A DNA stretch of 29,290 nucleotides from an uncultured Bacteroidota bacterium. Lineage in GTDB: Bacteria > Bacteroidota > Bacteroidia > Chitinophagales > Chitinophagaceae. Location: the NCBI GenBank assembly GCA_903929655.1, contig CAIYVS010000746.1:1-29290 (forward strand), given 5' to 3'. This document shows positions 4,303-29,290 of this stretch, in pieces. The notes under the pieces were generated by a model. It ran no database searches, was not told the origin of the DNA, and saw only the letters and a program-made list of their open reading frames with translations. A program made the position numbers and the translations under genes. Position 1 is the stretch's first letter, and each line of letters begins with the position of its first letter.

Positions 4303-4326
4303 TTCTTCAGGACGGCATAAATTTGA

Positions 4327-5469: not shown

Positions 5470-5478
5470 CGTATATTA

Positions 5479-6465: not shown

Positions 6466-6475
6466 TTCTTAAATA

Positions 6476-7690: not shown

Positions 7691-7697
7691 TATTAAA

Positions 7698-11219: not shown

Positions 11220-11315
11220 TGGGCAAACATTGTAGCTGTCTGGTTTTAAATGTAACAATAATTATCTGTCAATTTAAAATCTGCTCTTTGTATCTTGCAA
11301 AAACAAAGATCAAAA

Positions 11316-12257
11316 ATGACAGAACCATTAGCGCTCGGCATTGATATAGGCGGAACAAAAACGGCTTTCGGCCTGGTGAACAGGGAAGCGAAAATAGTAT
11401 TAAATGGCAGCATACCCACTACAGGGCATGGTGCTGTAGAGCAGTATGTTATGGCATTGAAAGAAGCCATCGAACCTATTTTAGAGCAGGCAGGAAAAAA
11501 TAATATTATAGGCGGCGGCGCAGGAGCGCCGAATGGCAATTATTATACAGGAGAAATCATGTTTGCCCCAAACTTACCCTGGCATGGCGTTATCCCTTTA
11601 GCTAAACTTTTATCAGATGCACTCGGAATTAAAATAAAGCTCAACAATGATGCTAATGCTGCCGCAATCGGAGAAATGACTTATGGAGTGGCAAAAGGCA
11701 TGAAGGATTTTATATTGGTTACCCTTGGCACAGGTGTAGGCAGCGGGTTTGTTGCTAACGGGCAATTGATATACGGGCATGACGGCTTTGCAGGGGAACT
11801 GGGACATGTCATTGCAGTGAGAGACGGGAGGAAATGCGGTTGCGGGCGTAATGGTTGTCTTGAAACCTATGCATCGGCAACCGGAGTTGTACGCACTGCC
11901 GAACAATGGCTTGAAGAAAGGAGTGATGCTACTTTATTAAGAGAACTCAAAGGCAAAATAACATCCGAAACTATATTTGAAGCTGCAGAAAAAGGAGACG
12001 TGTTTGCCCTTGAAATATTTGATTATACAGCAAAGATATTAGGACAAACCCTGGCCGATATGGTAGCCATCACATCACCACAAGCCATTATTTTCTTTGG
12101 CGGACTTTCCCAGGCAGGAGATATACTATTGAAGCCTGTGAAAAAATATATGGAAGAAACTATGCTGAACATTTTTAAGAACAAAGTGGCCATTTTACAA
12201 TCAGCCTTCAGCGACGCCAATGCAGCTATACTGGGAGCCAGTTCTATGGCATGGTAA
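11316..12257 (+). CDS. ROK family sugar kinase (glucokinase-like)
   Basis: GIDIGGT ATP loop, NNDANAAA, GELGH and the zinc motif CGCGRNGCLE. No N-terminal HTH, so a kinase rather than a repressor. Start set to ATG 11316 (ORF track starts at 11295). Confidence 0.92.
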   Translation: MTEPLALGIDIGGTKTAFGLVNREAKIVLNGSIPTTGHGAVEQYVMALKEAIEPILEQAGKNNIIGGGAGAPNGNYYTGEIMFAPNLPWHGVIPLAKLLSDALGIKIKLNNDANAAAIGEMTYGVAKGMKDFILVTLGTGVGSGFVANGQLIYGHDGFAGELGHVIAVRDGRKCGCGRNGCLETYASATGVVRTAEQWLEERSDATLLRELKGKITSETIFEAAEKGDVFALEIFDYTAKILGQTLADMVAITSPQAIIFFGGLSQAGDILLKPVKKYMEETMLNIFKNKVAILQSAFSDANAAILGASSMAW

Positions 12258-12258
12258 T

Positions 12259-12290
12259 GATTTGACAACTTTTCGAGAAGTTGTCAAATC
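12259..12290. terminator. Bidirectional hairpin terminator between the convergent ROK and GH125 genes
   Basis: Perfect 13-bp inverted repeat GATTTGACAACTT-ttcgag-AAGTTGTCAAATC filling the 40-nt gap between two stop codons. Confidence 0.75.
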
Positions 12291-12297
12291 TGGCTCT

Positions 12298-13716
12298 TTA
12301 TGCAAGCAGATGCGGCCTTTCCCGGTAAACCTTCCAAACAAACTCACCAAACAAAGTATTGGCCCAGGCAAACCATGAACGGGTAAATTTGGTTGCATCA
12401 TCTTTGTAAAACGACTCATGCATAAAACCTGTACCTGCATGTGTATGTTGCAAAGTGTCAAGGCAGTACTTTACTTCCTTATCATCATTGCTTGTTAAAC
12501 CACGCATAATGATACTCATAGGCCATATATAATCCATGCCTACATGCGGCCCACCGCCGCCTTCTGCAACCTTGCCTTTAAAGAAAAAGGGATTATCTTC
12601 CGACAAAACATATTTCCGGGTATCCTGGCAAACTTCGTCATCTTTCATCAGGGGTATTAAATACTGCAATGACAAAAGCGATGGAATATTGGCATCATCC
12701 ATCAGGTTAAAACTTCCGAATCCATTCACTTCATAAGCATATATCTCACCAAATTTTTCAGTCTTGATTTTAGCATTTTGGTCCAGGCCATTGTTTATTT
12801 GTTTTACAAGTGCATCTATTTCAGACGTATCCAGCTTACTTTTTACATTACCCGCAATGACAGACAACTGCATCAGAGAATGCATAGCAAAGAAATTACT
12901 TGGTATTAAATATGGATAGATGGTGGCATCATCGCTTGGTCTGAACATAGAGCAGATCAAACCATTAGGTTTTACCGGGTTGCCATAGCCATTCATCGGC
13001 AGCGTATCTGTTGAACTGGTTGTGCGTCGTTGGAAACTATAAGGTCCATGACCATCAAAACGCTGTTGTTCCTTAAATGTTTTAATGACCAGTTTCATAG
13101 CCTCAAACCACTCTTCATCAAATGCAGAACTGTCTCCTGTTGTTTCCCAGTAACCATATGCCAGGCGAATAGGATAACACAAACTATCCACTTCCCATTT
13201 GCGTTCATGTATGCCACGCCGCATTTCGGTATTGTCCTTATGCCATTCGCTCAGCTTATGCTCATTCTTATAAAATGCATTGGCGTAGGGATCCCTGATA
13301 ATACATTTTGCCTGCCTGTGGATGACACCTTTAATTAATTGTTGTAAGTCTTTATCTTCTTTGCACAATGGCAAATAGGGCCATACCTGGGCAGATGAAT
13401 CCCTGAGCCACATGGCATCTATATCGCCTGTAATCACGTAGGTATCCGGCTTACCATCTATCATATCAAAATCAACGGTGGTATCCAGTGTATTAGGGAA
13501 ACAGTTCTCAAACATCCAGCCTATCTCTTTATTACCAATGTTCTTTTTCACTTCAGCTATCACTTTTTCCACTGCTTTGCTCTTAAACCTTCTTTTCTTT
13601 TCTTCTATACGCACTACCGGGAAAACGGCATTGCTGCTTTTGCTGAAAGAATAGGGAGCGATCAAAACACCAGCAGCTACCAGCGAGGATTGAGCAATAA
13701 AACGCCTTCTGTTCAT
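12298..13716 (-). CDS. GH125 exo-alpha-1,6-mannosidase, Tat signal
   Basis: CFPNTLDTT, ITGDIDAMWLRDS, ERKWEVDSLC, MDDANIPSLL and FTRSWFAWAN motifs; N-terminal MNRRRF twin-arginine leader. Confidence 0.93.
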   Translation of the reverse strand: MNRRRFIAQSSLVAAGVLIAPYSFSKSSNAVFPVVRIEEKKRRFKSKAVEKVIAEVKKNIGNKEIGWMFENCFPNTLDTTVDFDMIDGKPDTYVITGDIDAMWLRDSSAQVWPYLPLCKEDKDLQQLIKGVIHRQAKCIIRDPYANAFYKNEHKLSEWHKDNTEMRRGIHERKWEVDSLCYPIRLAYGYWETTGDSSAFDEEWFEAMKLVIKTFKEQQRFDGHGPYSFQRRTTSSTDTLPMNGYGNPVKPNGLICSMFRPSDDATIYPYLIPSNFFAMHSLMQLSVIAGNVKSKLDTSEIDALVKQINNGLDQNAKIKTEKFGEIYAYEVNGFGSFNLMDDANIPSLLSLQYLIPLMKDDEVCQDTRKYVLSEDNPFFFKGKVAEGGGGPHVGMDYIWPMSIIMRGLTSNDDKEVKYCLDTLQHTHAGTGFMHESFYKDDATKFTRSWFAWANTLFGEFVWKVYRERPHLLA

Positions 13717-13802
13717 AGCTTAAATGTATAAAGAACTTAGATATAAACATACAAGCTTCTGAAAAGGTAAACTTATAGTATATTTAATCCAAACATGGAA
13801 AA

Positions 13803-16043
13803 ATGACTGCTTCTGCAATAAGAAAATACTGCTCCGTAATTATAGTATGTTTTTCATTTATAACACCTTCTACCCACGCTCAAAACCTCACCCGCTATGT
13901 AAACCCATTCATAGGTACAGGCGGGCACGGGCATACTTATCCCGGTGCTACCGTTCCTTTTGGCATGGTGCAATTAAGCCCCGATAATGGCTCTGAGGGC
14001 TGGGACTGGTGCAGCGGATATAATTACAGCGATTCTACCATAGCAGGCTTCAGCCATATGCATCTTAGCGGTACAGGCTGTGGCGACTGGACAGATATCT
14101 CCGTTATGCCCAATACAGGACTTTTCCCGGATACCGGCAGGTTCTTTAAAGTAAAATTCAGCCATACGAATGAAAAAGCAAGCCCTGGTTATTATAGTGT
14201 AAAATTGGACAATGGCATTGAAGCCGAATTGGCCGCGACTGAAAGATGTGGTTTTCACAAATATACCTTCCCTGCAAATTGTAAACCTGTTATCCGTTTT
14301 GATCTTGGTTACAATATTAATTATGACGAACCCATGGAGACCTCTTTACAAAAGATAGATGATTCCACCATTGTCGGATACCGTTATTCAAAAGGCTGGG
14401 CGCAGGTGCAGAAAGTTTATTTCGCAGCGCGTACTTCTGTCCCATTCAGCAAGTTATACTTTTCAGAAAAACAAAAAGACAATGAGTCGGGCCTAAAAGC
14501 AAAAATGGTAAGGGGCCAGTTAATATTTGAAAATGCTGCGGGTAAAACCATTATGATGAAAGTGGCATTATCTACCGTCAACACCAATAAAGCTTTGCAA
14601 AACTTAAATGAGATAAAGGGCTGGGACTTTAACAAAGTAAGAACTGATGCTGAACAAAAGTGGGAAACAGAGCTGGAAAAGATACAGATCAATACCACAG
14701 ATAATAACCTAAGAACCATATTTTATACGGCGCTCTACCATACCTGTATGGCTCCTGTATTATACTCCGATCCTGACGGCTACTACAAAAATGCAAAAGG
14801 GAATGTCTTAAAAATGAAGAAGGGACAGCGTTATACTGTTTTCTCATTATGGGATACCTTCCGGGGACTGAACCCTTTATTTACCATAACACAAACCGGA
14901 AGGGACCTGGATATATTGAACAGCATGTTAGCCTTTTGCGATGAGAATGGCCTTTTACCTGTCTGGGACCTCAGCACTTTCGAAACAAATTGCATGAGCG
15001 GTTACCATGCGGTGCCGGTGCTGGCAGATGCGGTGCTGAAAGATTTTCCCGGACTGGATGCGGAACGTGCTTATGAGGCCATGAAAAAAAGCGCCTTCCA
15101 AACCATGAGGGGCATACCCTTTTATATTCAATATGGCTATATACCGCAGGATAAAATGGGACAAAGCGTTACTTATACTTTGGAATATGCCTATGACGAC
15201 TGGTGTATAGCACAAGTGGCAAAAAAATTAGGCAAGACAGAAGACTATAAACTTTTTATGAATAGGGCCAATGCATACACATTGCTCTTTGACAAAAAAA
15301 CGGGTTTTATAAGAGGCAAAAATGCAAACGGCGATTGGGTTTTGCCTTTCGACCCTTATGTATCTACTGTTGTGGAAGGGCAGTCTATGTATGAAGAAGG
15401 GAATGCATGGCAGTACACTTTTTTTGTTCCTCACGATGTAAGAGGCCTTGCTAAAGAATATGGCAACTATGATAAATTCATACAAAAATTGGATTCTCTC
15501 TTCACAGTTTCCTCTGAGGTAAAAGGCGAGAACAAACCGCCTGATGTAAGCGGCCTCATAGGCCAATACGCTCATGGCAACGAGCCAAGTCACCATATTG
15601 CCTATATGTATGATTTTGTAGGCGCACCCTGGAAAACACAGCAGAAGATCAGGATGATCGTAGATTCCATGTACCATAATAATATGGACGGATATGCAGG
15701 CAATGAAGATTGCGGGCAGATGAGCGCATGGGCCATCTGGAGCATCATGGGTTTTTATCCTGCAAATCCTGCAGGCGGAGAATATGTTTTTGGCAGCCCA
15801 ATGCTGGATGATGTATCCATCAAATTAGCAGGCAATAAGACCATGCACATAAAGACTATCAATAACGCCAAGAACCATCCATATATACAGGCTGTAACAT
15901 TGAATGGCAAACCTTATACAAAGGTGTATATAGATCACTCTACATTAATGCAGGGCGGTGAAATGGTCTTTACAATGGGTGAGCAAGCCAATAAAAAATG
16001 GGGCCAGAATAAAGAAGACTGGCCAGCATCTGTGCACAATTAA
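13803..16043 (+). CDS. GH92 alpha-mannosidase, secreted
   Basis: YVNPFIGTGGHGHTYPG, FSLWDTFR, EEGNAWQY, GQYAHGNEPSHH and GNEDCGQMSAW motifs; signal peptide ending THA|Q. Confidence 0.95.
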   Translation: MTASAIRKYCSVIIVCFSFITPSTHAQNLTRYVNPFIGTGGHGHTYPGATVPFGMVQLSPDNGSEGWDWCSGYNYSDSTIAGFSHMHLSGTGCGDWTDISVMPNTGLFPDTGRFFKVKFSHTNEKASPGYYSVKLDNGIEAELAATERCGFHKYTFPANCKPVIRFDLGYNINYDEPMETSLQKIDDSTIVGYRYSKGWAQVQKVYFAARTSVPFSKLYFSEKQKDNESGLKAKMVRGQLIFENAAGKTIMMKVALSTVNTNKALQNLNEIKGWDFNKVRTDAEQKWETELEKIQINTTDNNLRTIFYTALYHTCMAPVLYSDPDGYYKNAKGNVLKMKKGQRYTVFSLWDTFRGLNPLFTITQTGRDLDILNSMLAFCDENGLLPVWDLSTFETNCMSGYHAVPVLADAVLKDFPGLDAERAYEAMKKSAFQTMRGIPFYIQYGYIPQDKMGQSVTYTLEYAYDDWCIAQVAKKLGKTEDYKLFMNRANAYTLLFDKKTGFIRGKNANGDWVLPFDPYVSTVVEGQSMYEEGNAWQYTFFVPHDVRGLAKEYGNYDKFIQKLDSLFTVSSEVKGENKPPDVSGLIGQYAHGNEPSHHIAYMYDFVGAPWKTQQKIRMIVDSMYHNNMDGYAGNEDCGQMSAWAIWSIMGFYPANPAGGEYVFGSPMLDDVSIKLAGNKTMHIKTINNAKNHPYIQAVTLNGKPYTKVYIDHSTLMQGGEMVFTMGEQANKKWGQNKEDWPASVHN

Positions 16044-16055
16044 TATACTAGGACC

Positions 16056-18686
16056 ATGTTTAATAAACTTTTTATTCTTGCAGTTCTTATTTCCATGATT
16101 ACATATCCCGTTTCCGGGCATGAACATGAATTGAATTCAGGATGGAAATGCTACCAGGCTTCAAAAGTCAATAGTAAAGGAGAGGAAATTTCCCTGCCAT
16201 CATTTCCGATAGCGTCGTGGATGCCGGCAGTAGTTCCCGGAACTGTTTTAACATCATTATTAAAAAACAAACAGATCCCTGATCCTTATTTCGGCTTGAA
16301 TAATGAAAAGATCCCCGATCTGAATAATACCGGGCCGGCATATTATACTTATTGGTTTGTAAATGATTTTAAAGAAGCTGAGGCTGCGCCTGATGAACAG
16401 GTTTGGCTGAACTGCAGGGGCATAAATTACAGCTTTGAGATTTACCTGAATGGAAATAAAATAAGCTCGCTTGACAAGGGCATGTTTCTAAGGCATACCT
16501 ATAATATAACGAAGTACCTGGCAAAGGATGGCAATAACCGACTTGCTGTTATTGTTTATCCTCCATCACCTGCAGGCAATGCCAATGGGGGCCAGGGCGG
16601 CGATGGCATGATAGCCCATAGTGTTACCAACCAATATGTAGCCGGATGGGATTGGATACAGCCCGTACATGACCGTAATACCGGTATCTGGGACAATATC
16701 TCCATACAAAGAACAGGGCTGATAAAAATAAACAACCCGCATATTGTAACTAAAGTGCCCGAAGCACGAAACCCCTTGGAACACCAGGACCCGGCCATAC
16801 TGAAAGTCTCTGCCGAACTGGAAAACCCAACAGACAATGGACTGGAAGGATATTTACAATATACTGTTGAAGAACAGGAAATTTCGCAGATCGTATTTAT
16901 TCCTGCCAGGACAACAAAACTTGTTAAGCTGGAAGACCTGCAAATTAAAAGCCCCAGGCTATGGTGGCCCAATGGATATGGCAAACAAGAGCTTTACAAA
17001 CTGAAGTACCGTTTTATTATTGACAGGCATCCTATACCATCAGATTCCGGCGAAATCACTTTTGGCATAAGGGAATTATCAAGTGCCTTGAATACAAAAA
17101 CCCTGAGCCGTGAGATATATGTAAATGGCCGGAAAATTTTTATAAAAGGAGGCAACTGGACACCTTCGGATGCGATGTTGCAATTATCAAAAGAGCGGTA
17201 TGATGCACAAGTGCGTTTTCATAAGGAGATGAACCTGAACCTGATCCGTGTATGGGGCGGTGGTATTACTGAACGCCCTGAATTTTATGAAGCCTGCGAT
17301 AAATACGGACTACTGGTGTTCCAGGAGTTTTGGATAAGCGGGGATTGTAATGGCGCATGGAACGACCCTATGAAACTGGAGGACACCAGCGTACGCCGGA
17401 AATATCCGGACGATCACCAACTATTTATTGCCTCTGCTGCCGACCAGATCAGGATGTTGCGCAATCACCCTTCTTTAGCTATATGGTGCGGAGGCAACGA
17501 GATAAAGCCCCCTAAAGATATACTTACTGCACTTCGCGATTCGCTGCTCCCTTCTTTAGATGGCACACGGTACTTCTTTCCTTATTCTAATGATGACAGC
17601 ATGTCTTACCAAAGTGGTGACGGACCTTACGTGATACAAGACCCAAAATATTTCTGGGAGCACAAGTCTTTCCCCTTCAATTCAGAAATCGGCTCTGTAG
17701 GCATAGGAGATTATGAATCGCTGGAGCGGGTCATTCCTAAAGAACATCTTGTTATCCCCGAACATTTTTCAAAAACCGAAAAACCGAAGTTTGACACAGT
17801 CTGGAATTATCACAAATACATCAGCTACGGGAAATATATTGATGCATACGGGAAACCCAAGAACCTGCAGGATTTCGCCAAAAGAGCACAACTGGTTAAC
17901 TATGAGCAATACCGCTCTATGATGGAAGGCTTTACATCTCATATGTGGGATTGGTACACTGGCTTTATCGTATGGAAAACACAAAACCCCTGGACGGCTT
18001 TACTGGGCGAAATGTATGACCACTACCTTGATCCTAATGCATGCTTATATGGTATAAGTGAAGGCGCAAAGCCTGTACATGCCATGTTCGATCGCTGGGA
18101 TAGTTCCATAGTACTGGCAAACAATACCCTCAACCCGATTCCCAATGTTACCCTATTGGTGAGAACTTATGACATTAGCGGCAAATCTTCAATCATAGTG
18201 GCAGCCCATGCGCCTTTAGCTACCAGTACTGCCTACAGATACGTTTCAGTTAGAAATGAACTAAAAGATATTGAAAAACAAAGCTTGCAAAAAGCCGATT
18301 TTGTTTCAGTACAATTGCTTGACTGGCACGAGGATGTAATAGATGAGAACCTGTATTGCCTGCCAGATACCAATGGTAATTATACCAGGTTACAGCAAAT
18401 GCATAAAGCCAATTTAAAAATTAGTGCTAAACTAGTTTCTGATGGAAAAATTGAAGTAAGATTAGACGATCCTAAGGACAATCCCATAGCTTATTTCAAC
18501 AGGTTGTCACTTGTTGATCCTAAAACAAAGAAACGAATATTGCCTGTTTTCTATTCTGATAATTACGTATCCGTTCTTCCCGGTGCAAGCAAAAGTGTAA
18601 CGCTTGAATACAGCCCGCAAAAAATCCAACCTATGTTATGTATAGAGGGATGGAATGTACCGAAACAATACATCCCGATACATTAA
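16056..18686 (+). CDS. GH2 glycosidase, beta-mannosidase / mannosylglycoprotein endo-beta-mannosidase-like
   Basis: QYVAGWDWIQPVHDRNTGIWD, FIKGGNW, LIRVWGGG, QEFWISGD, RNHPSLAIWCGGNE (acid/base Glu) and FNSEIG (nucleophile Glu); signal peptide. Confidence 0.88.
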   Translation: MFNKLFILAVLISMITYPVSGHEHELNSGWKCYQASKVNSKGEEISLPSFPIASWMPAVVPGTVLTSLLKNKQIPDPYFGLNNEKIPDLNNTGPAYYTYWFVNDFKEAEAAPDEQVWLNCRGINYSFEIYLNGNKISSLDKGMFLRHTYNITKYLAKDGNNRLAVIVYPPSPAGNANGGQGGDGMIAHSVTNQYVAGWDWIQPVHDRNTGIWDNISIQRTGLIKINNPHIVTKVPEARNPLEHQDPAILKVSAELENPTDNGLEGYLQYTVEEQEISQIVFIPARTTKLVKLEDLQIKSPRLWWPNGYGKQELYKLKYRFIIDRHPIPSDSGEITFGIRELSSALNTKTLSREIYVNGRKIFIKGGNWTPSDAMLQLSKERYDAQVRFHKEMNLNLIRVWGGGITERPEFYEACDKYGLLVFQEFWISGDCNGAWNDPMKLEDTSVRRKYPDDHQLFIASAADQIRMLRNHPSLAIWCGGNEIKPPKDILTALRDSLLPSLDGTRYFFPYSNDDSMSYQSGDGPYVIQDPKYFWEHKSFPFNSEIGSVGIGDYESLERVIPKEHLVIPEHFSKTEKPKFDTVWNYHKYISYGKYIDAYGKPKNLQDFAKRAQLVNYEQYRSMMEGFTSHMWDWYTGFIVWKTQNPWTALLGEMYDHYLDPNACLYGISEGAKPVHAMFDRWDSSIVLANNTLNPIPNVTLLVRTYDISGKSSIIVAAHAPLATSTAYRYVSVRNELKDIEKQSLQKADFVSVQLLDWHEDVIDENLYCLPDTNGNYTRLQQMHKANLKISAKLVSDGKIEVRLDDPKDNPIAYFNRLSLVDPKTKKRILPVFYSDNYVSVLPGASKSVTLEYSPQKIQPMLCIEGWNVPKQYIPIH

Positions 18687-19225
18687 CCGGGACATTCATC
18701 GGATGGAGATAATCCTTCTTTGTCTTTTGTCAGTATAGCTTTGCCATCTTTAAATGTGATGATCCATATACTGTCAAAATCATTATCATCCCATTTCAGG
18801 GCAGGGTCTTTTATACCCAGGGCGTGTACAATACCTGATATGGCATGGTGTTCCCACACTACCAGCACGGTGCCCTTTTTCGCTTTGATGTCCTTTGCTA
18901 TCTGCAGGGTATCCTTGTTTGCATATTTGCTATTCAGGACAAGATTATACTTTACAGCCATGGGTGTAGCAGTCTCAAACATACGGGCATGTTTTGTGCC
19001 CTTCTTCATTTCCAAAACAGGCACATAGGTATAATCGGGCACACCAAATTTATCATGTAATACTTTGGGCAATTGCAAGGCCCGGTTCAGCCCCTTACAG
19101 GTAAGATTATCGCCTTTTTCCGGCTTTTCGCCATGACGGATAAATACCACTTTGAGATCAGTTTGAGAGAAAACCGGGCTGAAAGCAAGGACGCTAAGAA
19201 CGAGTATGAATAATTGTTTTTTCAT
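18683..19225 (-). CDS. Secreted histidine phosphatase superfamily protein
   Basis: FIRHGEK catalytic motif, later LVVWEH, and signal peptide MKKQLFILVLSVLAFSPVFS|Q. Confidence 0.8.
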   Translation of the reverse strand: MKKQLFILVLSVLAFSPVFSQTDLKVVFIRHGEKPEKGDNLTCKGLNRALQLPKVLHDKFGVPDYTYVPVLEMKKGTKHARMFETATPMAVKYNLVLNSKYANKDTLQIAKDIKAKKGTVLVVWEHHAISGIVHALGIKDPALKWDDNDFDSIWIITFKDGKAILTKDKEGLSPSDECPG

Positions 19226-19329
19226 AACCCGCGAAGTTCTCTTTCTTGTGTGAACTGAATATTAAATCTGGCTTTGTGTCAAGCGTAAAATATACCGTCC
19301 CTATCGGGCAATGCTAAGATCCACCCTAC

Positions 19330-19791
19330 TTACTTTTTGGTTTTCAAGTCGTCTAATATCTCGAGTATGATCTTGTTTTGATACTCCAGATGCATTAAAA
19401 TGGTCTCGATTTCCAATTCGGCTTGCTTATTGATTTCGTAATCTGCTTCCGCGCGGGCATCTGCTATACCTGATTGCAGGTTCTGACCTATCATGATGAG
19501 CGGCATGAGGAATAACTGGATCATATTGGATATGAACAACCATAATACAAATGCAGGAAAAGGATCGAAGCGCCAGGCTTTTGGGGCGAGCATGTTCCAG
19601 CTGAGCCATAAAACAGTCCAGAAAAAAATGATGAGGAAGAATTTCATGCTGCCTACATGTTCTGTTATCCACAAAGCCAAACGCTCCATCTTACCCGCCT
19701 TTTTTCTATTTGCTTTGAACGCTTCCCTGTAAGGTTTGCGCGATTTCTTTAATTCATCCAGGGACTTTGCAATATTTTGTTCCGTAGTCAT
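19330..19791 (-). CDS. DUF1003 family membrane protein
   Basis: Two hydrophobic segments with FDPFP and IMIGQN...DARAEADYEIN, then a coiled-coil tail. Confidence 0.85.
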   Translation of the reverse strand: MTTEQNIAKSLDELKKSRKPYREAFKANRKKAGKMERLALWITEHVGSMKFFLIIFFWTVLWLSWNMLAPKAWRFDPFPAFVLWLFISNMIQLFLMPLIMIGQNLQSGIADARAEADYEINKQAELEIETILMHLEYQNKIILEILDDLKTKK

Positions 19792-19940
19792 TTTAGTATG
19801 CCTGTTTATGTTTCATTTTCATCCTCCCTGCAATATATCCTGAAATGAGCGGGAAGGACATTGATAAAAGGTATAAAGATTTATTAAATTGTGCTGAAAT
19901 TATATAAATAAACCAAGCTTCTGAAATTAATTTGCCTGTA

Positions 19941-21788
19941 ATGAAATATACCATTATAATAGTTCTGATACTCTTGAATACCAGTTGTATCGCTCAATCT
20001 CCCGACCCTTATATGGGCATCATTCCTGCCCCGGTATCTGTAAAAAGAACGAACGGGGAATTTATATACAGTCATGAAACACATGTTATCTCACAATTGG
20101 AGAACAACCGGGCGATGAATGCCTATCTGAACTTTATGCATTCCAGGGATATGGAAACAAAGAAACTTAGCTCCGCCCGGGAAGGCGGCGGCTATGAAAA
20201 TACCATCACCATTACAGAAGACGGGGCCGATGCGCTGCCTGCAGACGGATATAAGATCAGCATCACTGAAAAAAACATACGCATAGTTGGTAAGGGTGCA
20301 GGGCTTTTTTATGGCATACAAACTTTTATTCAGCTTATTTCCCAGAACAATAATTACAGCATGGTAATACCTTGCGCAGAGATAGAGGATTACCCGCGTT
20401 TTCCATACAGGGGTTTGCACCTGGATGTATCACGACATTTTTTCAGTGTGGCCTTTGTAGAAAAATATATAGACCTGATGGCTAGCTATAAGCTCAATAA
20501 TTTTCACTGGCACCTTACTGACGACCAGGGATGGCGCATAGAGATCAGGAAATACCCAAAGCTTACATCTGTTGGCAGCAAAAGGGCACAAAGCAGGGTG
20601 GGCCGTTATGGCCCTGATAGTACCGCCTTGTTTGACAATACACCTTATGGTGGTTTTTATACACAAGATGAAATAAAAGAAGTAGTGGCCTATGCTACTG
20701 CACGCTACATCAATATTGTTCCCGAAATAGAAATGCCCGGGCACTCTATAGAAATGCTGGCTGCATACCCTGAACTGAGTTGTGAGCCTGATAAAAAATA
20801 TAAAGTAGGAGAAACATGGGGCGGCTTTGATGATGTGCTTTGCCCCAGCGAAACCACTTTTAAATTCATGGAAAACGTGCTGACAGAAGTAATGGAACTT
20901 TTTCCGGGAAAGTATATTCATATAGGTGGTGATGAGTGTAATAAAGTGGCATGGAAAAAATCAAAATACTGTCAGCAATTTATCAAAGAACATGATCTGA
21001 AAGATGAAGAGGGCTTACAGAGCTATTTCATCAGGCGCATAGAAAAATTTGTAAACTCGAAAGGCCGCAGCATTATTGGCTGGGACGAGATACTGGAAGG
21101 AGGCGTGGCCCCCAATGCAACGATCATGAGCTGGAGGGGTGAAAAAGGCGGCATTGCCGCTGCACAGCAAAACCATCATGTTATCATGACCCCTGGCAGT
21201 GGTGGCTTGTATTTTGATCACAGGCAAAGCAAGTCTGACCAGGAACCTTTGTCTATCGGCGGTTATGCGCCACTTGAAAAAACCTATGCTTATGATCCTG
21301 TGCCTGCTGTATTAAGTGCTGAAGAACAAAAAAATATCATAGGCGTCCAGGCGAATGTATGGACAGAATATATTACTACAGAACAGAAGGTAGGATATAT
21401 GTTGCTGCCGCGCATGCTGGCATTGGCGGAGGTTGCATGGACGCCTCCATCGAATAAAAACTATGAGGATTTTTCTGAGACGCGCATACCCCAACAGCTT
21501 GCCAGGCTGGATGCCAAGGGCTGGGATTATCGTGTACCGGTTGCTATTGGCCTCAAGGATTCCATTGTGAGGGGTTCTGAATTCAATATAGAATTAAAAC
21601 CTTCGGTTGCCGGTGCTAAAATCTATTATACCATAGATGGTTACCTGCCCAGGGAAACTGATATGGAATATATCAAGCCTTTGCATCTAAGTGTGCCTGC
21701 CGGAAAAGAAATGATCTTTCAGACTATTGTTATTGCAGCATCAGGCAAGAGGAGTATTGTGACAAAAACGGTGTTGAGCAATAAATAG
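19941..21788 (+). CDS. GH20 beta-N-acetylhexosaminidase with C-terminal Fn3-associated/CHB_HEX_C-like domain
   Basis: YRGLHLDVSRHFF, FHWHLTDDQGWRIE, EIEMPGH, catalytic HIGGDE and GVQANVWTEY; C-terminal IYYTIDG. Start set to ATG 19941 (signal peptide ending CIA|Q). Confidence 0.95.
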   Translation: MKYTIIIVLILLNTSCIAQSPDPYMGIIPAPVSVKRTNGEFIYSHETHVISQLENNRAMNAYLNFMHSRDMETKKLSSAREGGGYENTITITEDGADALPADGYKISITEKNIRIVGKGAGLFYGIQTFIQLISQNNNYSMVIPCAEIEDYPRFPYRGLHLDVSRHFFSVAFVEKYIDLMASYKLNNFHWHLTDDQGWRIEIRKYPKLTSVGSKRAQSRVGRYGPDSTALFDNTPYGGFYTQDEIKEVVAYATARYINIVPEIEMPGHSIEMLAAYPELSCEPDKKYKVGETWGGFDDVLCPSETTFKFMENVLTEVMELFPGKYIHIGGDECNKVAWKKSKYCQQFIKEHDLKDEEGLQSYFIRRIEKFVNSKGRSIIGWDEILEGGVAPNATIMSWRGEKGGIAAAQQNHHVIMTPGSGGLYFDHRQSKSDQEPLSIGGYAPLEKTYAYDPVPAVLSAEEQKNIIGVQANVWTEYITTEQKVGYMLLPRMLALAEVAWTPPSNKNYEDFSETRIPQQLARLDAKGWDYRVPVAIGLKDSIVRGSEFNIELKPSVAGAKIYYTIDGYLPRETDMEYIKPLHLSVPAGKEMIFQTIVIAASGKRSIVTKTVLSNK

Positions 21789-22150: not shown

Positions 22151-22609
22151 TCAAAGTTCACCCGCTTCTTTCAATATCTCCCTGACCACATCTTCTGAAA
22201 TACGGAAATTCGTATGTTTAACTTTATCCAGGAATGGCTTTACAGAATGTATAATTCCTCTTTGTTTCGCTTTTATGATGATACCAAAAGTACCAGTAAA
22301 AACAATATTTAAACGTGTGGCGATCTTCCGGGCGCCTCCATCATCAAGTACAACAATAGCATCGGTTAATTCATAAGTTAAGGCTATAGCGCTTGCTTCG
22401 CCTTTGTCAAGTTCAGCTTCTAATGCCTTCTGTTTATTTTTATCTTTTACTTCCTGTATCAATACCCAGCCGGGTAAATCAAATCTGAATTCTGCAGCCA
22501 CTTCGGGAGTAGTATATACTGAAGCGTAAACATTGCGTAGCAACTCAATTTCATTGATCTTTACAAGCAATATGAAGCAACTTGTATCGGCAATGACTAC
22601 TTTATGCAT
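22151..22609 (-). CDS. DUF3368 / PIN-domain protein (putative toxin)
   Basis: PIN acidic motifs VIADTS, LDKGEASAI and VLDDGGAR; C-terminal GTFGIIIKAK...FRIS DUF3368 pattern. Confidence 0.9.
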   Translation of the reverse strand: MHKVVIADTSCFILLVKINEIELLRNVYASVYTTPEVAAEFRFDLPGWVLIQEVKDKNKQKALEAELDKGEASAIALTYELTDAIVVLDDGGARKIATRLNIVFTGTFGIIIKAKQRGIIHSVKPFLDKVKHTNFRISEDVVREILKEAGEL

Positions 22610-22887: not shown

Positions 22888-24552
22888 CTATTTCTCCGTC
22901 AATACCTGCTGGCTGCGTGATATCGCATCTTTCATATCGTTCACCACATTAGCTTTGCCTATTTTAAATATCAGTCTTGCTTTTTGCAGTTCTTCAAATA
23001 CGCCTTCATGATTGACTTCTGACAATATGAGTTTGGTGTGCTGGTGATAGCACTCCTGTTGCACTTCCTCCAGTGTCCTGATACCTGTGGCATCTATAAT
23101 GGGCACATTGCGCATGCGGAGTATGAGCACCTTTGGTGTCTTTTCTATAATATTGATAGCATCTTTGAATTTGTAAGCAGCACCGAAAAACAATGGACCG
23201 TTTATTTCGTAGACCACCACTCCTTTAGGAATAATAAAATTGCTGACCGACTCTGTATCTGCCTCTTCCTGAACATCACTTAATACATCATTCAGTTCGC
23301 GCACATTGGAGAATTGTGTCATCTTGCGCATAAATAGGAATGCGGCCAGTACCATACCTATTTCGATGGCCACTGTAAGATCAACAAGTACAGTGAGTAA
23401 AAAGGTAACCAATAAAACGGCTGCATCAGAGCGGGGGCCTTTCATGATATAAACAAAATTGCGCCACTCGCTCATGTTATAAGCCACTACTATCAGGATG
23501 CCGGATAGTGTAGCCATGGGTATCAATGCAGCCCATTTGCCTACAAACAACATAATGAGGAGCAAGGTAATAGCATGTATGATACCTGCTACGGGTGTTC
23601 TCCCCCCGTTTTTTACGTTGGTAGCAGTGCGTGCTATTGCCCCTGTTGCGGGGATGCCACCGAATATAGCAGAGAACATATTGGCAGTTCCCTGTGCTAC
23701 CAGTTCCATATTTGATTTGTGATGCCCGCCTATCATACCGTCTGCCACTACTGCAGATAATAAAGATTCTATACCGCCCAATATGGCTATTGTGAATGCC
23801 GGTCTTATGAGTTTTTGAATAATAGCCCAGTCTAAATGTGGCACTACCGGCATGGGTAAATGAGTAGGTATGGCACCAAAACGACTGCCGATGGTTGCAA
23901 TGGGAATATGTAAAAAATAAACGGCTGCTGTTGTACCCAAAATGGCGATGAGCGAGCCCGGAACTTTATGTGTAACGCGTGGCCAGAACATTATTATAAG
24001 GATAGTGATAAGTGCAGTGACCAGCGAATACATATCTACTGTGGAGACCTGCCCCGCATATGCTCTCCATTTATCAATAAAATCTGCAGGAACAACGCCC
24101 ATACTCAGCCCCAGGAAATCCTTCATCTGGGATGAAAAAATAATGAGGGCTATCCCGGTAGTAAAACCAACTATTAAAGGATGGGGAATGAATTTTATGA
24201 TGACCCCCAGCCTGGCAAAACCCATTATTACCAATAGTATCCCCGCCAGGAAGGTAGCTATGATCAATCCGTTGATGCCATATTCCAGTACAATACCATA
24301 GACTATCACAATAAATGCGCCTGTCGGACCACCTATCTGTACCTTACTGCCCCCCAGGGCAGAAATCACGAAGCCGGCTATAATGGCGGTGTAAAGCCCT
24401 TTTTCGGGAGATACCCCCGAGGCGATGGCGAAAGCAATGGCGAGAGGCAATGCAACAATCCCTACTATAATACCTGCCATCAGGTCTTTCAGGAATTGTT
24501 GCTTATTATAATTCTTTAAAGTATAAATGATCTTCGGAACAAACATGGCCAT
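22888..24552 (-). CDS. sulP: SulP (SLC26-like) anion transporter with C-terminal STAS domain
   Basis: DLMAGIIVGIVALPLAIAFA, QIGGPTGAF, GGIPATGAIARTATNV, and STAS motifs YEINGPLFFGAA and IIDATG. The start could alternatively be ATG 24546. Confidence 0.95.
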   Translation of the reverse strand: MAMFVPKIIYTLKNYNKQQFLKDLMAGIIVGIVALPLAIAFAIASGVSPEKGLYTAIIAGFVISALGGSKVQIGGPTGAFIVIVYGIVLEYGINGLIIATFLAGILLVIMGFARLGVIIKFIPHPLIVGFTTGIALIIFSSQMKDFLGLSMGVVPADFIDKWRAYAGQVSTVDMYSLVTALITILIIMFWPRVTHKVPGSLIAILGTTAAVYFLHIPIATIGSRFGAIPTHLPMPVVPHLDWAIIQKLIRPAFTIAILGGIESLLSAVVADGMIGGHHKSNMELVAQGTANMFSAIFGGIPATGAIARTATNVKNGGRTPVAGIIHAITLLLIMLFVGKWAALIPMATLSGILIVVAYNMSEWRNFVYIMKGPRSDAAVLLVTFLLTVLVDLTVAIEIGMVLAAFLFMRKMTQFSNVRELNDVLSDVQEEADTESVSNFIIPKGVVVYEINGPLFFGAAYKFKDAINIIEKTPKVLILRMRNVPIIDATGIRTLEEVQQECYHQHTKLILSEVNHEGVFEELQKARLIFKIGKANVVNDMKDAISRSQQVLTEK

Positions 24553-24764
24553 GGCTGAAAAATATTGATCTTCTGAAATGCGAGCCTAAAAGTAAAAAGA
24601 AATTTAATGTCAAGTAATGATATTGAGCACAACAACATAAAAAATTAAATAATATTAATAATAGCTGATTTTACAATCAGGCTATTTCAGCAGTCTAAAC
24701 TTTTATTTTAAGATTTATATATAAAATAAGCAAAAACATACTATAAAGCTAAAAAATAGGGCAG

Positions 24765-24772
24765 TATCTTTA
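24765..24772 (+). promoter_or_regulatory. Possible -7 element for the Pls-like synthetase
   Basis: TATCTTTA (TAnnTTTG with a terminal A) 27 nt upstream of ATG 24800; no clear -33 element. Confidence 0.3.
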
Positions 24773-24799
24773 GTGTTTTTTAGTATTGTTTGCATTAGC

Positions 24800-27700
24800 A
24801 TGGATTCTATTAGTATCATTAAAGGACCGGAACGTTTGGATTTGCTGCACGATGAAACGCTTGCAGATATATTTCGTGCTTCCGCGAAACTATATGCTAA
24901 TAAAACTTCCCTGGTCTTTAATGAGCAGTACCTCAATTATACCAATTTAGACCGTTGGAGCGATGCGGTTGCTGCCTACCTTGTTCAAAAAGGAATTGGC
25001 AGGGGCCAAACAGTAGGTTTATGGTATCCCCGCAGTTTAGAACTCCATGTTGCCATACTGGGAATTGTGAAATCAGGCGCTGCCTATGTGCCGCTTGATA
25101 GGGAAATGCCCCCTGAAAGGGTGATAACTGTTTTGACGGAAGTTGGGGCGAGTGGAATTTTCAGCCTGGACCCTATCCAGGTCAATTGCCCTGTATTTTC
25201 TGTTGTGCCGATGCCCAAAGCAAGTGAAAAGATTGAGGTAAGCGCCGGCCCCCAACCAGATGACTGGGCTTATGTATTATACACTTCAGGAAGCACAGGC
25301 ACTCCGAAAGGCATTCCCATAACACACAGGCAGATATCACAACTGGCTCGTGCCGAACAAAGCATTTTTAATATACGCTCAGAAGACAGGGTGTACCAGG
25401 GTTTTTCGGTTTCGTTTGATATGTGGTGCGAAGAGACCTGGATAAGTTACCTGGCAGGGGCATCTATATGGGTAGCCGATGCAGCCACCGCAAAAAGCAT
25501 TGATGAGTTAAGCGATGTATTGAGGAAGGAAAATATCAGCATCCTGCATGCAGTACCCAGCCTGCTTGCAATACTGGAAGATGATATTCCATCTCTGCGA
25601 TTGGTAAACGCAGGTGGCGAGGCCTGTACCCCACAGGTACTGTCCCGCTGGTCTACACCGGAGCGGGAGTTTTATAATAGTTACGGGCCAACAGAAACCA
25701 CGGTTACTGCTACCCTGGCCCGCCTAAATCCGGGAGACCCGATAACGATAGGGCTGCCTATACCCAATTATAACCTGGCGGTTGTGGATGAGCATTTAAA
25801 CCCGGTGCCAATGGGCGAGAGAGGGGAGCTGGTTATCAGCGGGCCCGGCCTGTCCAATGGCTATATTAACCGGCCCGAACTGACCAGGGAAAAATTTGTA
25901 CCTAAACCAGAATCGTTAAATGCCATACCCGGAGACCGCATATACCGGACCGGGGACGCAGCCATCATCAATGCGAATGGCAGTGTAGATTTTTATGGCC
26001 GCCTGGATGACCAGATAAAATTAAGAGGCTACCGCATAGAGCTTGGGGAAATAGAGGCACGATTAAATAATCTGCCAGGCATATCAGCCGCGGCCGTGGC
26101 TGTAAAAAAAGACGCTAACCTGCAGGAACAATTAGTAGGATATGTACTGGCCGAAGATCTTACAGAATTCAGCGAGCCTGTCTTGCGGGCAGAACTTGCA
26201 AAGGTTTTGCCGCCCTATATGGTACCTGCCATCATAGTGGCGCTGCCGGAAATGCCCAGGCTGGCCAGTGGCAAAATAGATCGTAAAAATCTTCCTATAC
26301 CAGACTCCCTGCTGCAGAAAGCTGCATCCGGCGAGACAGAAGCTATAGACCCCAATTCGTCTGTAAGTGCCAGAGTGAAAGCCGCATTGAGCATTGTTTT
26401 TCCCAACAGGCCTATCGACCTTGAACAGGATTTTTTTACAGACCTGGGCGGGCATTCCTTATTGGCTGCCGTTTTTATTTCCAAGCTCAGAAAGGAGGGA
26501 CAGTTAAAAAATGTTTCGCTGAAGGATATTTACCTGCACCGGCCCATGAATAAACTGGTGGCGGAATGGGAATCTAAAGCCGGGACAAAAGCAAGAGAAA
26601 AGAGGGCATTCAATCCTATACCAAGAGGGCGCTACCTGGCATGTGCCTTTGCTCAAACACTTGCTTTAATAGTTGTTTACGGACTCTTTGCCATACAGAT
26701 ATTCCTGCCCTACCTGGGATATTATTACGTGGAAGAAGATACCAATAACCTGGGTTATGCGGTAGGTACGGCACTCTGCATGTTCTGTCTTATACCGGCT
26801 TTTTTCTCAATCATCAGCATTGCAACAAAATGGCTGGTAATAGGGAAAATAAAAGAAGGTGATTATCCTTTATGGGGTGTTTACTATTTCAGGTGGTGGT
26901 TTGTAAAGACATTGCAGCGATTGATGCAGGTACAGTTTCTGAACGGCACCCCGCTCTACCCTGTTTATCTCAGGATGCTTGGGGTAAAAATAGCACCGGA
27001 TGCACAATTAAGCGCCATGACCATTGGTGCTGAAGACCTTGTCAGCATTGGCAGCGATGTATCCATCAGTTCGCAGGCCATATTAAATAATGCAGTGGTA
27101 GAAGACGGTTTGTTAAAACTACGCCGCATCACACTCGGAGACCATGCCTATATTGGCAGCAGTGCCATCATAGCCGGAGATACTACTATTGAGGCCTGGG
27201 GAGAATTGCAGGACCTTTCTTTTCTGCCACCCGGCAAAACTATAAAAGAAGGTGAAGTATGGCAGGGCAGCCCGGCTGTTTTTGTCAAAAAAAGACCGCT
27301 TGATGAATTGCCGCAGCCATTGCATGTATCTGCAGGGCGGCGCAGGGTTTACAGTTTTATTTTCCTTTTATTACTGCTGTTGTTCCCTTTCATGGTGTTA
27401 TTACCCATATTGCCCACCATCATTATCATCAATAATATAGACAATGCCCTGCCCGATTACGATTTCAGTTATCTCGTCATTACGCCCTTTCTGTCATTAA
27501 GCTATATCATACTATTTGCTTTTGTTACAGTAGTCCTTACCCGCTGGCTGCAAAAAGGCATCAAACCGGGCAAATATTTTATTTATAGTCCCTTCTACCT
27601 GCGCAAGTGGTTTGCAGACCAGTTGATGTCTTTATCGCTTATAGTGCTGCACCCTATTTATGCCACCGTTTATGTTTCTACCCTCTTCCGGGCATTGGGT

Positions 27701-28741
27701 GCCAAGATCGGCAAGAGAACAGAGATATCAACCGCCAGCAGCGTAACACACCCCTTGCTGGAAATTGGTAAAGGTTCTTTTGTGGCAGATGCTGTGACAT
27801 TGGGAGAAGCAGATATACGCGGTCAGCAATTGATACTGGACAAGACCATTATAGGCAACAGCAGTTTTGTTGGCAACAGCGCCCTGATACCACAAGGTTA
27901 TAATTTACCCAGCCATATGCTGATAGGCGTATTATCTACTCCGCCTACTGCCTCACAATTAGAATCAGCCAATGCAAGGAACTGGTTTGGCTCACCCGCC
28001 ATACCCTTGCCACGCAGGCAGGAAAGCCATCCTTTTTCGTTAAGGCTTACCACTTTCCCTACTGTGCAGAGAAGACTGGCGCGGAGCCTTGTGGAACTGG
28101 TGAGGATATTGATACCCGAAACCATTGTTCTTTGCTGCAGTATTTTATTCATCGCTTACGCCCACGATCTGCTGGTTACAAAAAAATGGTGGAAGATCAT
28201 GCTGGAATTGCCATTCTATTATTTATACTTCATGGGCCTGCCGGCTTTCCTGGTAACCGTAATTATAAAATGGCTTGCCGTAGGTAAGTATAAAGTTCAG
28301 CAAAAACCTATGTGGACATCCAGGGTGTGGATGAGCGAAGCGATCACCACTACCTACGAGGCTCTCGCTGTACCCTTCTTCCTCTCTTATTTGCAGGGCA
28401 CCTGCTGGCTCCCTATACTATTGCGCTTATTAGGCGTTAAAACAGGTAAAAGGGTTTGGATGAACACAACTGATATTACAGAGCATGATATGGTTTCTAT
28501 TGGGGACGACACCGCCCTTAATGAAGATTGCGGCCCGCAAACACATCTTTTTGAAGACAGGGTGATGAAAACCGGCACGGTGACTATAGGCGCACGCTGC
28601 AGCATTGGCGCCCGTTCTATTATCTTATACGACAGCGAGATAGAAAACGATGTGCGTGTGGAACCATTATCATTATTAATGAAAGGAGAGAAACTGCAGG
28701 AAGGCACCGAATGGACCGGCAGCCCAGTAAGACCATTATAA
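24800..28741 (+). CDS. Single-module membrane-bound NRPS-like homopoly(amino acid) synthetase (Pls/PosA family): A-T-6TM with three C-like/LbH repeats
   Basis: A-domain cores YTSGSTGTPKG, NSYGPTE, GELVISG, YRTGD, GRLDDQIKLRGYRIELGEIE and SGKIDR; carrier motif LGGHSL (Ser codon 26456-26458). Six hydrophobic segments alternate with three LG(V/A)K(I/T) hexapeptide-repeat domains; terminal QTHLFEDR. No condensation or TE domain. Start set to ATG 24800. Confidence 0.92.
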   Translation: MDSISIIKGPERLDLLHDETLADIFRASAKLYANKTSLVFNEQYLNYTNLDRWSDAVAAYLVQKGIGRGQTVGLWYPRSLELHVAILGIVKSGAAYVPLDREMPPERVITVLTEVGASGIFSLDPIQVNCPVFSVVPMPKASEKIEVSAGPQPDDWAYVLYTSGSTGTPKGIPITHRQISQLARAEQSIFNIRSEDRVYQGFSVSFDMWCEETWISYLAGASIWVADAATAKSIDELSDVLRKENISILHAVPSLLAILEDDIPSLRLVNAGGEACTPQVLSRWSTPEREFYNSYGPTETTVTATLARLNPGDPITIGLPIPNYNLAVVDEHLNPVPMGERGELVISGPGLSNGYINRPELTREKFVPKPESLNAIPGDRIYRTGDAAIINANGSVDFYGRLDDQIKLRGYRIELGEIEARLNNLPGISAAAVAVKKDANLQEQLVGYVLAEDLTEFSEPVLRAELAKVLPPYMVPAIIVALPEMPRLASGKIDRKNLPIPDSLLQKAASGETEAIDPNSSVSARVKAALSIVFPNRPIDLEQDFFTDLGGHSLLAAVFISKLRKEGQLKNVSLKDIYLHRPMNKLVAEWESKAGTKAREKRAFNPIPRGRYLACAFAQTLALIVVYGLFAIQIFLPYLGYYYVEEDTNNLGYAVGTALCMFCLIPAFFSIISIATKWLVIGKIKEGDYPLWGVYYFRWWFVKTLQRLMQVQFLNGTPLYPVYLRMLGVKIAPDAQLSAMTIGAEDLVSIGSDVSISSQAILNNAVVEDGLLKLRRITLGDHAYIGSSAIIAGDTTIEAWGELQDLSFLPPGKTIKEGEVWQGSPAVFVKKRPLDELPQPLHVSAGRRRVYSFIFLLLLLLFPFMVLLPILPTIIIINNIDNALPDYDFSYLVITPFLSLSYIILFAFVTVVLTRWLQKGIKPGKYFIYSPFYLRKWFADQLMSLSLIVLHPIYATVYVSTLFRALGAKIGKRTEISTASSVTHPLLEIGKGSFVADAVTLGEADIRGQQLILDKTIIGNSSFVGNSALIPQGYNLPSHMLIGVLSTPPTASQLESANARNWFGSPAIPLPRRQESHPFSLRLTTFPTVQRRLARSLVELVRILIPETIVLCCSILFIAYAHDLLVTKKWWKIMLELPFYYLYFMGLPAFLVTVIIKWLAVGKYKVQQKPMWTSRVWMSEAITTTYEALAVPFFLSYLQGTCWLPILLRLLGVKTGKRVWMNTTDITEHDMVSIGDDTALNEDCGPQTHLFEDRVMKTGTVTIGARCSIGARSIILYDSEIENDVRVEPLSLLMKGEKLQEGTEWTGSPVRPL

Positions 28742-28897: not shown

Positions 28898-28994
28898 CTT
28901 TGGAAAAATGCATTGACATGTAAAGTTCAGTGCAATTGGGTGCATTTCAAATTTTAGCTGTAATAGCAGGACAATGTGTTGTGATGAGTGTTGC

Positions 28995-29022
28995 GTAGAG
29001 ACGGGATGCATCCCGTCTCTAC
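28995..29022. repeat. 28-bp perfect palindrome, REP-like element of the GTAGAGACG...CGTCTCTAC type
   Basis: GTAGAGACGGGATG|CATCCCGTCTCTAC is fully self-complementary and begins with the GTAG tetranucleotide typical of REP/RAYT-associated repeats. Confidence 0.75.
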
Positions 29023-29290
29023 ATAGGGTCTGCTGAATAAGTCAAGGCATAGCATGATTTGCAATTTTCTATTGAATTTCAAGCAATTTTGCCTGTTTAT
29101 TATAGACAATACATCTGTGATGCTAATTTTCGCAAGAGAAATCTATTGTGATAAAAAAAGAGATGCAAGGTTTTAGAGGTGTTTTATCCCAAATCCATGC
29201 ACTTGCAGTAATAAAATCACTATTAAATGTAAGCTGGATAAGGGTTTCATACTTTCGCAGCAGGCCCTACATACATGTTATTATAAAATA

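Follow-up and report, generated by a model that had tools for sequence, protein, structure and literature searches.

What does the large synthetase gene near the end of contig CAIYVS010000746.1, from an uncultured bacterium of the Chitinophagaceae (Bacteroidota), produce? The window that we analyzed is this entire 29.3-kb contig, one of 847 contigs of a genome that is 89.75% complete. The gene (24800..28741, + strand) codes for a protein of 1313 aa, and we have hardly any doubt that this protein is a member of the Pls/PosA family. By analogy to PosA of Acinetobacter baumannii, it is probably a single-module, membrane-embedded polymerase of the PosA branch, similar to non-ribosomal peptide synthetases, that makes delta-poly-L-ornithine or a close variant of it.

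Domain architecture and family of the synthetase

The only long open frame of the region extends from 24773 to 28741 on the + strand, and its first ATG at 24800 results in a protein of 1313 aa. The database copy has the same length and homologues have 1310-1320 aa. The reading frame contains no stops or frameshifts. The gene and its parts are as follows, all on the + strand:

24800..28741, +: synthetase gene, Pls/PosA family, 1313 aa plus stop codon (TIGR02353 with 670.9 bits, TIGR01733 with 387 bits)
24872..26275, +: adenylation (A) domain, aa 25-492 (Pfam AMP-binding and AMP-binding_C; specificity code DMEHNGSVTK)
26357..26584, +: carrier or thiolation (T) domain, aa ~520-595 (Pfam PP-binding; LGGHSL, phosphopantetheine serine at aa 553)
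26633..26845, +: transmembrane (TM) helix pair 1, aa 612-682 (hydropathy peaks 2.21 and 2.24; model helices H9-48 and H51-81)
26867..27334, +: soluble unit C1, left-handed beta-helix (LbH), aa ~690-845 (LbH_EIF2B at 729-795)
27341..27553, +: transmembrane helix pair 2, aa 848-918 (hydropathy peaks 3.02 and 2.20; model helices H261-283 and H290-317)
27572..28069, +: soluble unit C2, left-handed beta-helix, aa ~925-1090 (homologous to C1 with E 4e-16 and to C3 with E 3e-11; model)
28085..28285, +: transmembrane helix pair 3, aa 1096-1162 (hydropathy peaks 2.25 and 1.91; model helices H489-527 and H530-561)
28307..28738, +: soluble unit C3, left-handed beta-helix, aa ~1170-1313 (Pfam Hexapep at 1261-1289)

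The Pfam matches were AMP-binding (25-355), AMP-binding_C (417-492), PP-binding (532-567) and hexapeptide/LbH repeats. Condensation and thioesterase domains were not found in the synthetase by Pfam and NCBIfam scans. The core motifs A3, A5, A7, A8, and A10 of the adenylation domain were intact, and the serine of the carrier domain was present in LGGHSL at aa 549. The family model TIGR02353 (Pls/PosA family non-ribosomal peptide synthetase) matched residues 618-1310 with 670.9 bits at a curated cutoff of 423.1, and model positions 2-695 of 695 were collinear with the C-terminal domain. In a six-frame search of the genome, the synthetase (673.3 bits) was the only copy at the level of TIGR02353.

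A Kyte-Doolittle scan revealed three pairs of strong TM segments, six in all (612-641/651-682, 848-881/888-918, and 1096-1128/1137-1162), which are separated by soluble units of about 180 residues each, as in the Pls/PosA layout. The three units of helix pair and soluble part were homologous to each other (25-32% identity, E 3e-11 to 2e-26). We modeled the C-terminal 713 aa with AlphaFold2 (mean pLDDT 90.8, pTM 0.90). This confident model has three repeats in which two long helices are combined with short helices and a beta-helix. Unit C1 had matches to gamma-carbonic-anhydrase-like LbH proteins, fold matches to LbH acetyltransferases and strands in the model. A motif in unit C3, GPQTHLFEDRVMK, was invariant across the clade described below (columns Q647 to K657, alignment A1), and HLFEDR[VI]M was specific enough for finding at least 598 relatives in species genomes. 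Searches of the PDB by sequence and by fold found no solved structure spanning the whole polymerization domain; the matches of the C-terminal domain were single left-handed beta-helix acyltransferases and gamma-carbonic-anhydrase-like proteins (TM-score by query ≤0.15).

A preliminary description made from the letters of the window had proposed an A-T-6TM-3x(C-like) protein without condensation or thioesterase domain and had assigned it to the Pls/PosA family. Pfam, hydropathy, the homology of the units, and the AlphaFold2 model confirmed this architecture and its coordinates, and the family assignment was borne out by the TIGR02353 score and by the position of the protein inside the family in the phylogeny.

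The same architecture, A-T-(2TM+LbH)x3, is found in PosA (ATY43264.1; PDB 8G95-8G98; PMC10522769). Pls of Streptomyces albulus (BAG68864.1; PDB 7WEW) shares TIGR02353, the domain order, six TM helices, and three tandem LbH units with the synthetase.

Substrate pocket and position in the family tree

The specificity code of the adenylation domain was DMEHNGSVTK (aa 207, 208, 211, 250, 270, 272, 294, 302, 303, and 492). It was read at the published PosA positions, and the same procedure reproduced the published code of the Chitinophaga vietnamensis homologue, DMEHNGSVSK, which validated the method. The code of PosA is DMEHNGTVSK. Eight of the ten positions are thus identical, including the Asp, the gating Met, and the Glu, and the others are Ser/Thr swaps. 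The pocket segment aligned to the adenylation domain of PosA (PDB 8G95-98) without gaps over 161 residues and with 175.8 bits. In this alignment D207, M208, and E211 of the synthetase correspond to Asp217, Met218, and Glu221 of PosA, which are essential or gate the chain length according to mutagenesis (PMC10522769). The Glu at code position 3 binds the terminal amine and is kept in all synthetases of cationic homo-poly(amino acids) (CHPA), and Thr304 and Ser313 of PosA form hydrogen bonds with the delta-amine (PMC10522769). The equivalents of the latter two residues are Ser294 and Thr303; the hydroxyls are retained and the identities swapped.

With Pls (PDB 7WEW), the pocket segment scored 123 bits as compared to 175.8 for PosA. 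Pls also has Asp at code position 1 and Glu at position 3, but its code, DAESIGTVVK, has Ala at position 2, where the synthetase has Met. The code types within the family are DAE for lysine (Lys; DAESIGTV[VI]K), DFE for diaminobutyrate/diaminopropionate (Dab/Dap), DGE for beta-lysine, and DME for ornithine (Orn).

We tested the grouping of the synthetase with a maximum-likelihood tree of 98 full-length members, after an exhaustive profile search had resulted in 613 clusters (50% identity) at E ≤ 1e-30. Since the tree was built on the C-terminal domain alone, it is independent of the pocket. The synthetase fell into a clade of 24 representatives with an SH-aLRT support of 99, and 20 of these 24 have DME codes. 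The representative that is nearest to the PosA adenylation domain (P0144, 476.5 bits) is inside the same clade. The Lys (DAE), Dab/Dap (DF), and beta-Lys (DGE) types are located elsewhere in the tree; 47 of the 48 DAE-type representatives are on the other side of it. The synthetase thus neither has a Lys-type code nor groups with DAE-type enzymes, which lie outside its clade. Based on the code and the common clade with P0144, we assigned its sequence to the PosA (ornithine) branch and not to Pls proper.

Two homologues from genera other than that of the host are predicted from their codes to use ornithine. WP_073234317.1 of Pedobacter caeni has the identical code DMEHNGSVTK, and WP_201747873.1 of C. 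vietnamensis, listed under Bacteroidetes, has DMEHNGSVSK (PMC10522769, Supplementary Table 2). The latter protein (P0114) is 72% identical to the synthetase over the C-terminal domain and belongs to the same six-row clade. The table labels P. caeni as Acidobacteria; Pedobacter is a genus of the Bacteroidota, so that the table has two Bacteroidota entries and not one.

PosA activates L-ornithine and forms delta-poly-L-ornithine in vitro, and antifungal activity was shown in the same paper (PMC10522769). In view of the pocket and the clade, we consider it probable that the synthetase also polymerizes L-ornithine. While the product was demonstrated for PosA, it is predicted here. The enzyme further differs from PosA by its host, a member of the Bacteroidota and not a gammaproteobacterium, and its C-terminal domain has only about 40% identity to the non-Bacteroidota representatives of the clade.

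Some observations weigh against ornithine as the monomer. Code positions 7 and 9, i.e., two out of ten, differ from PosA; both touch the substrate amine, and to judge from the residues these differences could shift the specificity. PosA itself is not in the tree and is anchored there only via its nearest 50%-identity representative, P0144. Our literature search found no demonstrated polymer product from any Bacteroidota homologue, and nothing specific on non-alpha poly(amino acids) (NAPAA) or poly-lysine in Bacteroidota. A further point comes from the arginine genes of the window:

205-8396, -: complete arginine-biosynthesis operon (argH, ArgE/DapE-type M20 deacylase, argB, carbamoyltransferase, argD, argC, argG)
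7698-8396, -: 232-aa open reading frame (ORF) of this operon, no assignment

The carbamoyltransferase of this operon is of the N-acyl-ornithine type; its best NCBIfam match was N-acetylornithine carbamoyltransferase, with 274.4 bits just below the cutoff of 288. Together with the known arginine synthesis of Bacteroidota, this suggests an acyl-ornithine route in which free ornithine is bypassed, so that it may not be a main-line intermediate in the host; this is a caveat for the ornithine assignment and not a refutation. The genome harbors two arginase-family genes, which could supply free ornithine. An ornithine cyclodeaminase was not found in the genome at its 89.75% completeness.

The arginine operon is located 16 kb from the synthetase gene. 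In nine synthetase-bearing relatives argG was either on a separate contig or at a distance of 167 kb to 2.4 Mb. We therefore treated the proximity as coincidental and rejected the operon as a conserved partner for precursor supply.

An enzyme of the same type could use another basic monomer, namely L-lysine, D-ornithine, diaminobutyrate, or hydroxylated or acetylated ornithine. The exchange of T and S for S and T at the two amine-contacting positions would fit such a monomer, as would the co-occurrence of a GNAT acetyltransferase with the clade (see below) and the finding that the pocket of PosA also bound D-Orn and L-Lys in crystals (PMC10522769). However, Met at position 2 sterically disfavors lysine, and the M218A mutation of PosA increased the efficiency with Lys about 10-fold (PMC10522769). 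The Ser/Thr swaps preserve the hydroxyl groups, and the DAE, DFE, and DGE codes for Lys, Dab/Dap, and beta-Lys all occur elsewhere in the C-terminal-domain tree. We consider another monomer unlikely. The suggestion of the preliminary description that the host makes a cationic isopeptide homopolymer was supported in its chemistry; due to the near-match of the pocket to PosA, the polymer is probably not an uncharacterized one.

Relatives, accessory genes, and genomic context

Among the Chitinophagaceae we found more than 100 protein clusters of homologues at 70-79% identity (Flavipsychrobacter, Nemorincola, Chitinophaga). Several of them (Chitinophaga, Flavipsychrobacter) already carry the NCBI name Pls/PosA family non-ribosomal peptide synthetase. 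With the C-terminal alignment of the clade, we scanned species-representative genomes and found at least 598 relatives; the locus counts below refer to the best 80. About 74 of these best 80 species-level matches were from Bacteroidota, including Chitinophaga, Flavipsychrobacter, Taibaiella, Edaphocola, Ferruginibacter, many Mucilaginibacter, Pedobacter, Flavobacterium, Chryseobacterium, and Arcicella. Full-length homologues were obtained from the best 80 genomes in 75 cases; 74 of them had a DME-type code and 43 had exactly DMEHNGSVTK. No demonstrated product from Bacteroidota came to light in our literature search, as the preliminary description had supposed. The taxonomic novelty that it saw is nevertheless overstated, as Bacteroidota homologues are already annotated by NCBI and listed in PMC10522769.

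In even samples the distribution of the gene was patchy. Of 24 other genera of the family, 5 had it, as did 4 of 400 genomes sampled from the phylum; it was absent from all 16 other families of the same order.

It is also conceivable that no free polymer is made and that one or a few ornithyl units are transferred onto a membrane lipid or surface glycan, resulting in a cell-bound cationic modification. The C-terminal units share their fold with LbH acyltransferases whose substrates are sugars, lipids, and amino acids. The C-terminal domain is 53-76% identical across Bacteroidota families, an unusual degree of conservation that one would sooner expect of a physiological function than of an antibiotic, and no exporter or degrading enzyme is linked to the synthetase gene. 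Against this, all characterized family members produce a homopolymer (PMC10522769), the C-terminal domain is collinear with TIGR02353 over nearly the complete model, and the patchy distribution speaks for an accessory trait more than for a core function of the envelope. We regard a mere surface modification as improbable, and free delta-poly-L-ornithine remains the preferred product.

The carrier domain would be primed by a phosphopantetheinyl transferase (PPTase). A genome scan, which the preliminary description had proposed as a check, identified two Sfp/HetI/AcpT-like PPTases, both unlinked to the synthetase gene (contigs C580 and C572). Neither of the two computable grounds for refutation named in that description, a position outside the Pls clade and a genome devoid of PPTases, thus applied. 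An Sfp-type PPTase was encoded within 1.5 kb of the synthetase in 26 of the 80 loci. In 18 of the 80 loci, a GNAT acetyltransferase of about 160-180 aa was located on the same strand 0-232 nt downstream of the synthetase; among them are those of the nearest relatives from Flavipsychrobacter and Chitinophaga. A linked GNAT and/or PPTase, as seen in this part of the Bacteroidota clade, is undescribed for PosA. Most relatives have no linked partners. In the host the GNAT gene is encoded elsewhere:

G000 contig C228:13255-13791 (locus L104:1756-2292), -: GNAT orthologue, 50-57% identical to linked GNATs

This orthologue is full-length and has 57% identity to the GNAT of Flavipsychrobacter; it did not match any NCBIfam family. 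Its gene has a central position on the 25.8-kb contig C228, flanked by proline dehydrogenase and fdhD, and we therefore rejected a junction of the window end with the GNAT contig.

At E ≤ 1e-20 the GNAT was detected in three of nine other synthetase-bearing genomes sampled, once unlinked, and in none of about 430 sampled genomes lacking the synthetase; related genomes are not independent, and we claim no statistic for these counts. It was not found in five further synthetase-bearing genomes of Mucilaginibacter, Pedobacter, and Edaphocola and is therefore optional. We concluded that the GNAT is an optional accessory that tracks the synthetase. A loosely linked system, with the Bacteroidota PosA-type synthetase as its core and a dedicated GNAT for N-acetylation of the polymer or for self-protection, is a tentative idea that we hold to be rather doubtful. 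One may speculate that the GNAT N-acetylates the polymer, resulting in a new, tailored poly-ornithine, or that it acetylates polymer left in the cytoplasm and in this way protects the producer. Self-immunity of this kind is not known to us from enzymes of the Pls or PosA type. Beyond published work, the association with the GNAT is our only lead and the one element that might add novelty.

We regard it as very improbable that the intact gene stays silent or lacks function in the host for want of a cognate PPTase or of the GNAT and PPTase neighbors that adjoin it in other loci. The dispersed repeats that fill the downstream DNA up to the contig end would fit such a reading. Against it, the frame and every catalytic motif are intact, two Sfp-type PPTases and a GNAT orthologue are encoded elsewhere in the genome, and most relatives, like PosA, are also without linked partners. 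Both the synthetase gene and posA, a single-gene operon (PMC10522769), stand alone without co-transcribed partners.

The other features of the window are:

22888-24552, -: SulP/STAS permease, divergent, upstream of the synthetase gene
24553..24799, no strand: AT-rich divergent intergenic region between sulP and the synthetase gene, 247 nt, presumed promoter region
22151-22609, -: DUF3368 protein, 152 aa, between the GH20 gene and sulP
8910-21788: glycan-degradation block (two GH92 alpha-mannosidases, GH125, GH20 hexosaminidase, GH2 with exo-beta-D-glucosaminidase Ig domain, ROK kinase)

The intergenic region 24553..24799 had no match to TAnnTTTG and no Rfam hit. Farther upstream, proteins with DUF3368 and DUF1003 and the GH20, GH2, GH92, and GH125 glycosidases with the ROK kinase are encoded. 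DUF3368 family proteins frequently form the toxin-like partner in small modules of two genes. The block at 8910-21788 looks like a cluster for the utilization of N-glycans or mannosides that is unrelated to the synthetase. The flanking genes of the synthetase are not conserved among relatives: neither SulP, DUF3368, DUF1003, nor the glycoside hydrolases recurred beside it in nine relatives, and we rejected them as partners.

From the stop codon to the contig end (28742-29290), 549 nt are non-coding. No credible ORF and no Rfam match were found in this DNA, which is instead a mosaic of short dispersed repeats, and we rejected a missed gene or RNA. An element of about 90 nt (28937-29025) contains the 28-nt palindrome GTAGAGACGGGATGCATCCCGTCTCTAC at 28995-29022 and has copies with 88-96% identity on seven or more other contigs. 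The final 82 nt of the window match contig C612 at 98.8%. The element resembles miniature inverted-repeat transposable elements or repetitive extragenic palindromes (MITE/REP-like). It is the probable cause of the contig break. Of the surroundings given in the preliminary description, the divergent sulP and the roughly 550 nt of non-coding DNA were found as described; that the window holds no precursor gene was not correct in view of the arginine operon.

The synthetase gene has a GC content of 47.1% in a genome of 40.4%, a value reached by only 0.5% of windows of the same size. In 68 of 74 loci of the Bacteroidota clade (L024-L103), the synthetase gene was also GC-richer than its flanks, on average by 4.2 points. 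The excess is thus a trait of the family and no evidence of recent transfer, and we rejected recent horizontal transfer, for which this family-wide bias could be mistaken. Synthetases with 53-68% identity to the Bacteroidota type were also present on contigs labeled as Janthinobacterium lividum and as Phycisphaerales, Methylophilaceae, and Alphaproteobacteria metagenome-assembled genomes (L048, L082, L091, and L094), which suggests mis-binned Bacteroidota contigs or transfer between phyla.

Proposed mechanism and relevance

The results above show the architecture, the family, the pocket residues, the position in the tree, and the presence of PPTases. From the model of Pls and PosA, we infer substrate, linkage, polymerization, export, and biological role as follows. 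The adenylation domain would activate L-ornithine as aminoacyl-AMP, and the ornithine would be loaded as a thioester onto the phosphopantetheine arm of the carrier domain, which an unlinked Sfp-type PPTase would have primed. The C-terminal domain, presumably a six-helix membrane bundle bearing three packed left-handed beta-helices, would repeatedly couple the delta amine of the acceptor, either free ornithine or the growing chain, to the ornithyl thioester on the carrier domain. The product, a short cationic isopeptide polymer, would be released, probably outside the cell, where it may have antimicrobial or antifungal action. Antifungal activity of a synthetic 10-mer against Fusarium culmorum has been reported in the literature.

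The kind of enzyme, its architecture, and its Bacteroidota homologues are already catalogued and will not surprise the specialist. To our knowledge, the antifungal cationic polymer delta-poly-L-ornithine has so far been shown only for A. baumannii. If our prediction is true, soil and freshwater Bacteroidota of the genera Chitinophaga, Flavipsychrobacter, Mucilaginibacter, Pedobacter, Flavobacterium, and Chryseobacterium would be a second and broad source of it. A recent discussion of disease-suppressive consortia of the rhizosphere also dealt with delta-poly-L-ornithine. Since several of the genera named can be cultured and live in association with plants, the prediction could matter for biocontrol and for understanding the antagonism between bacteria and fungi.

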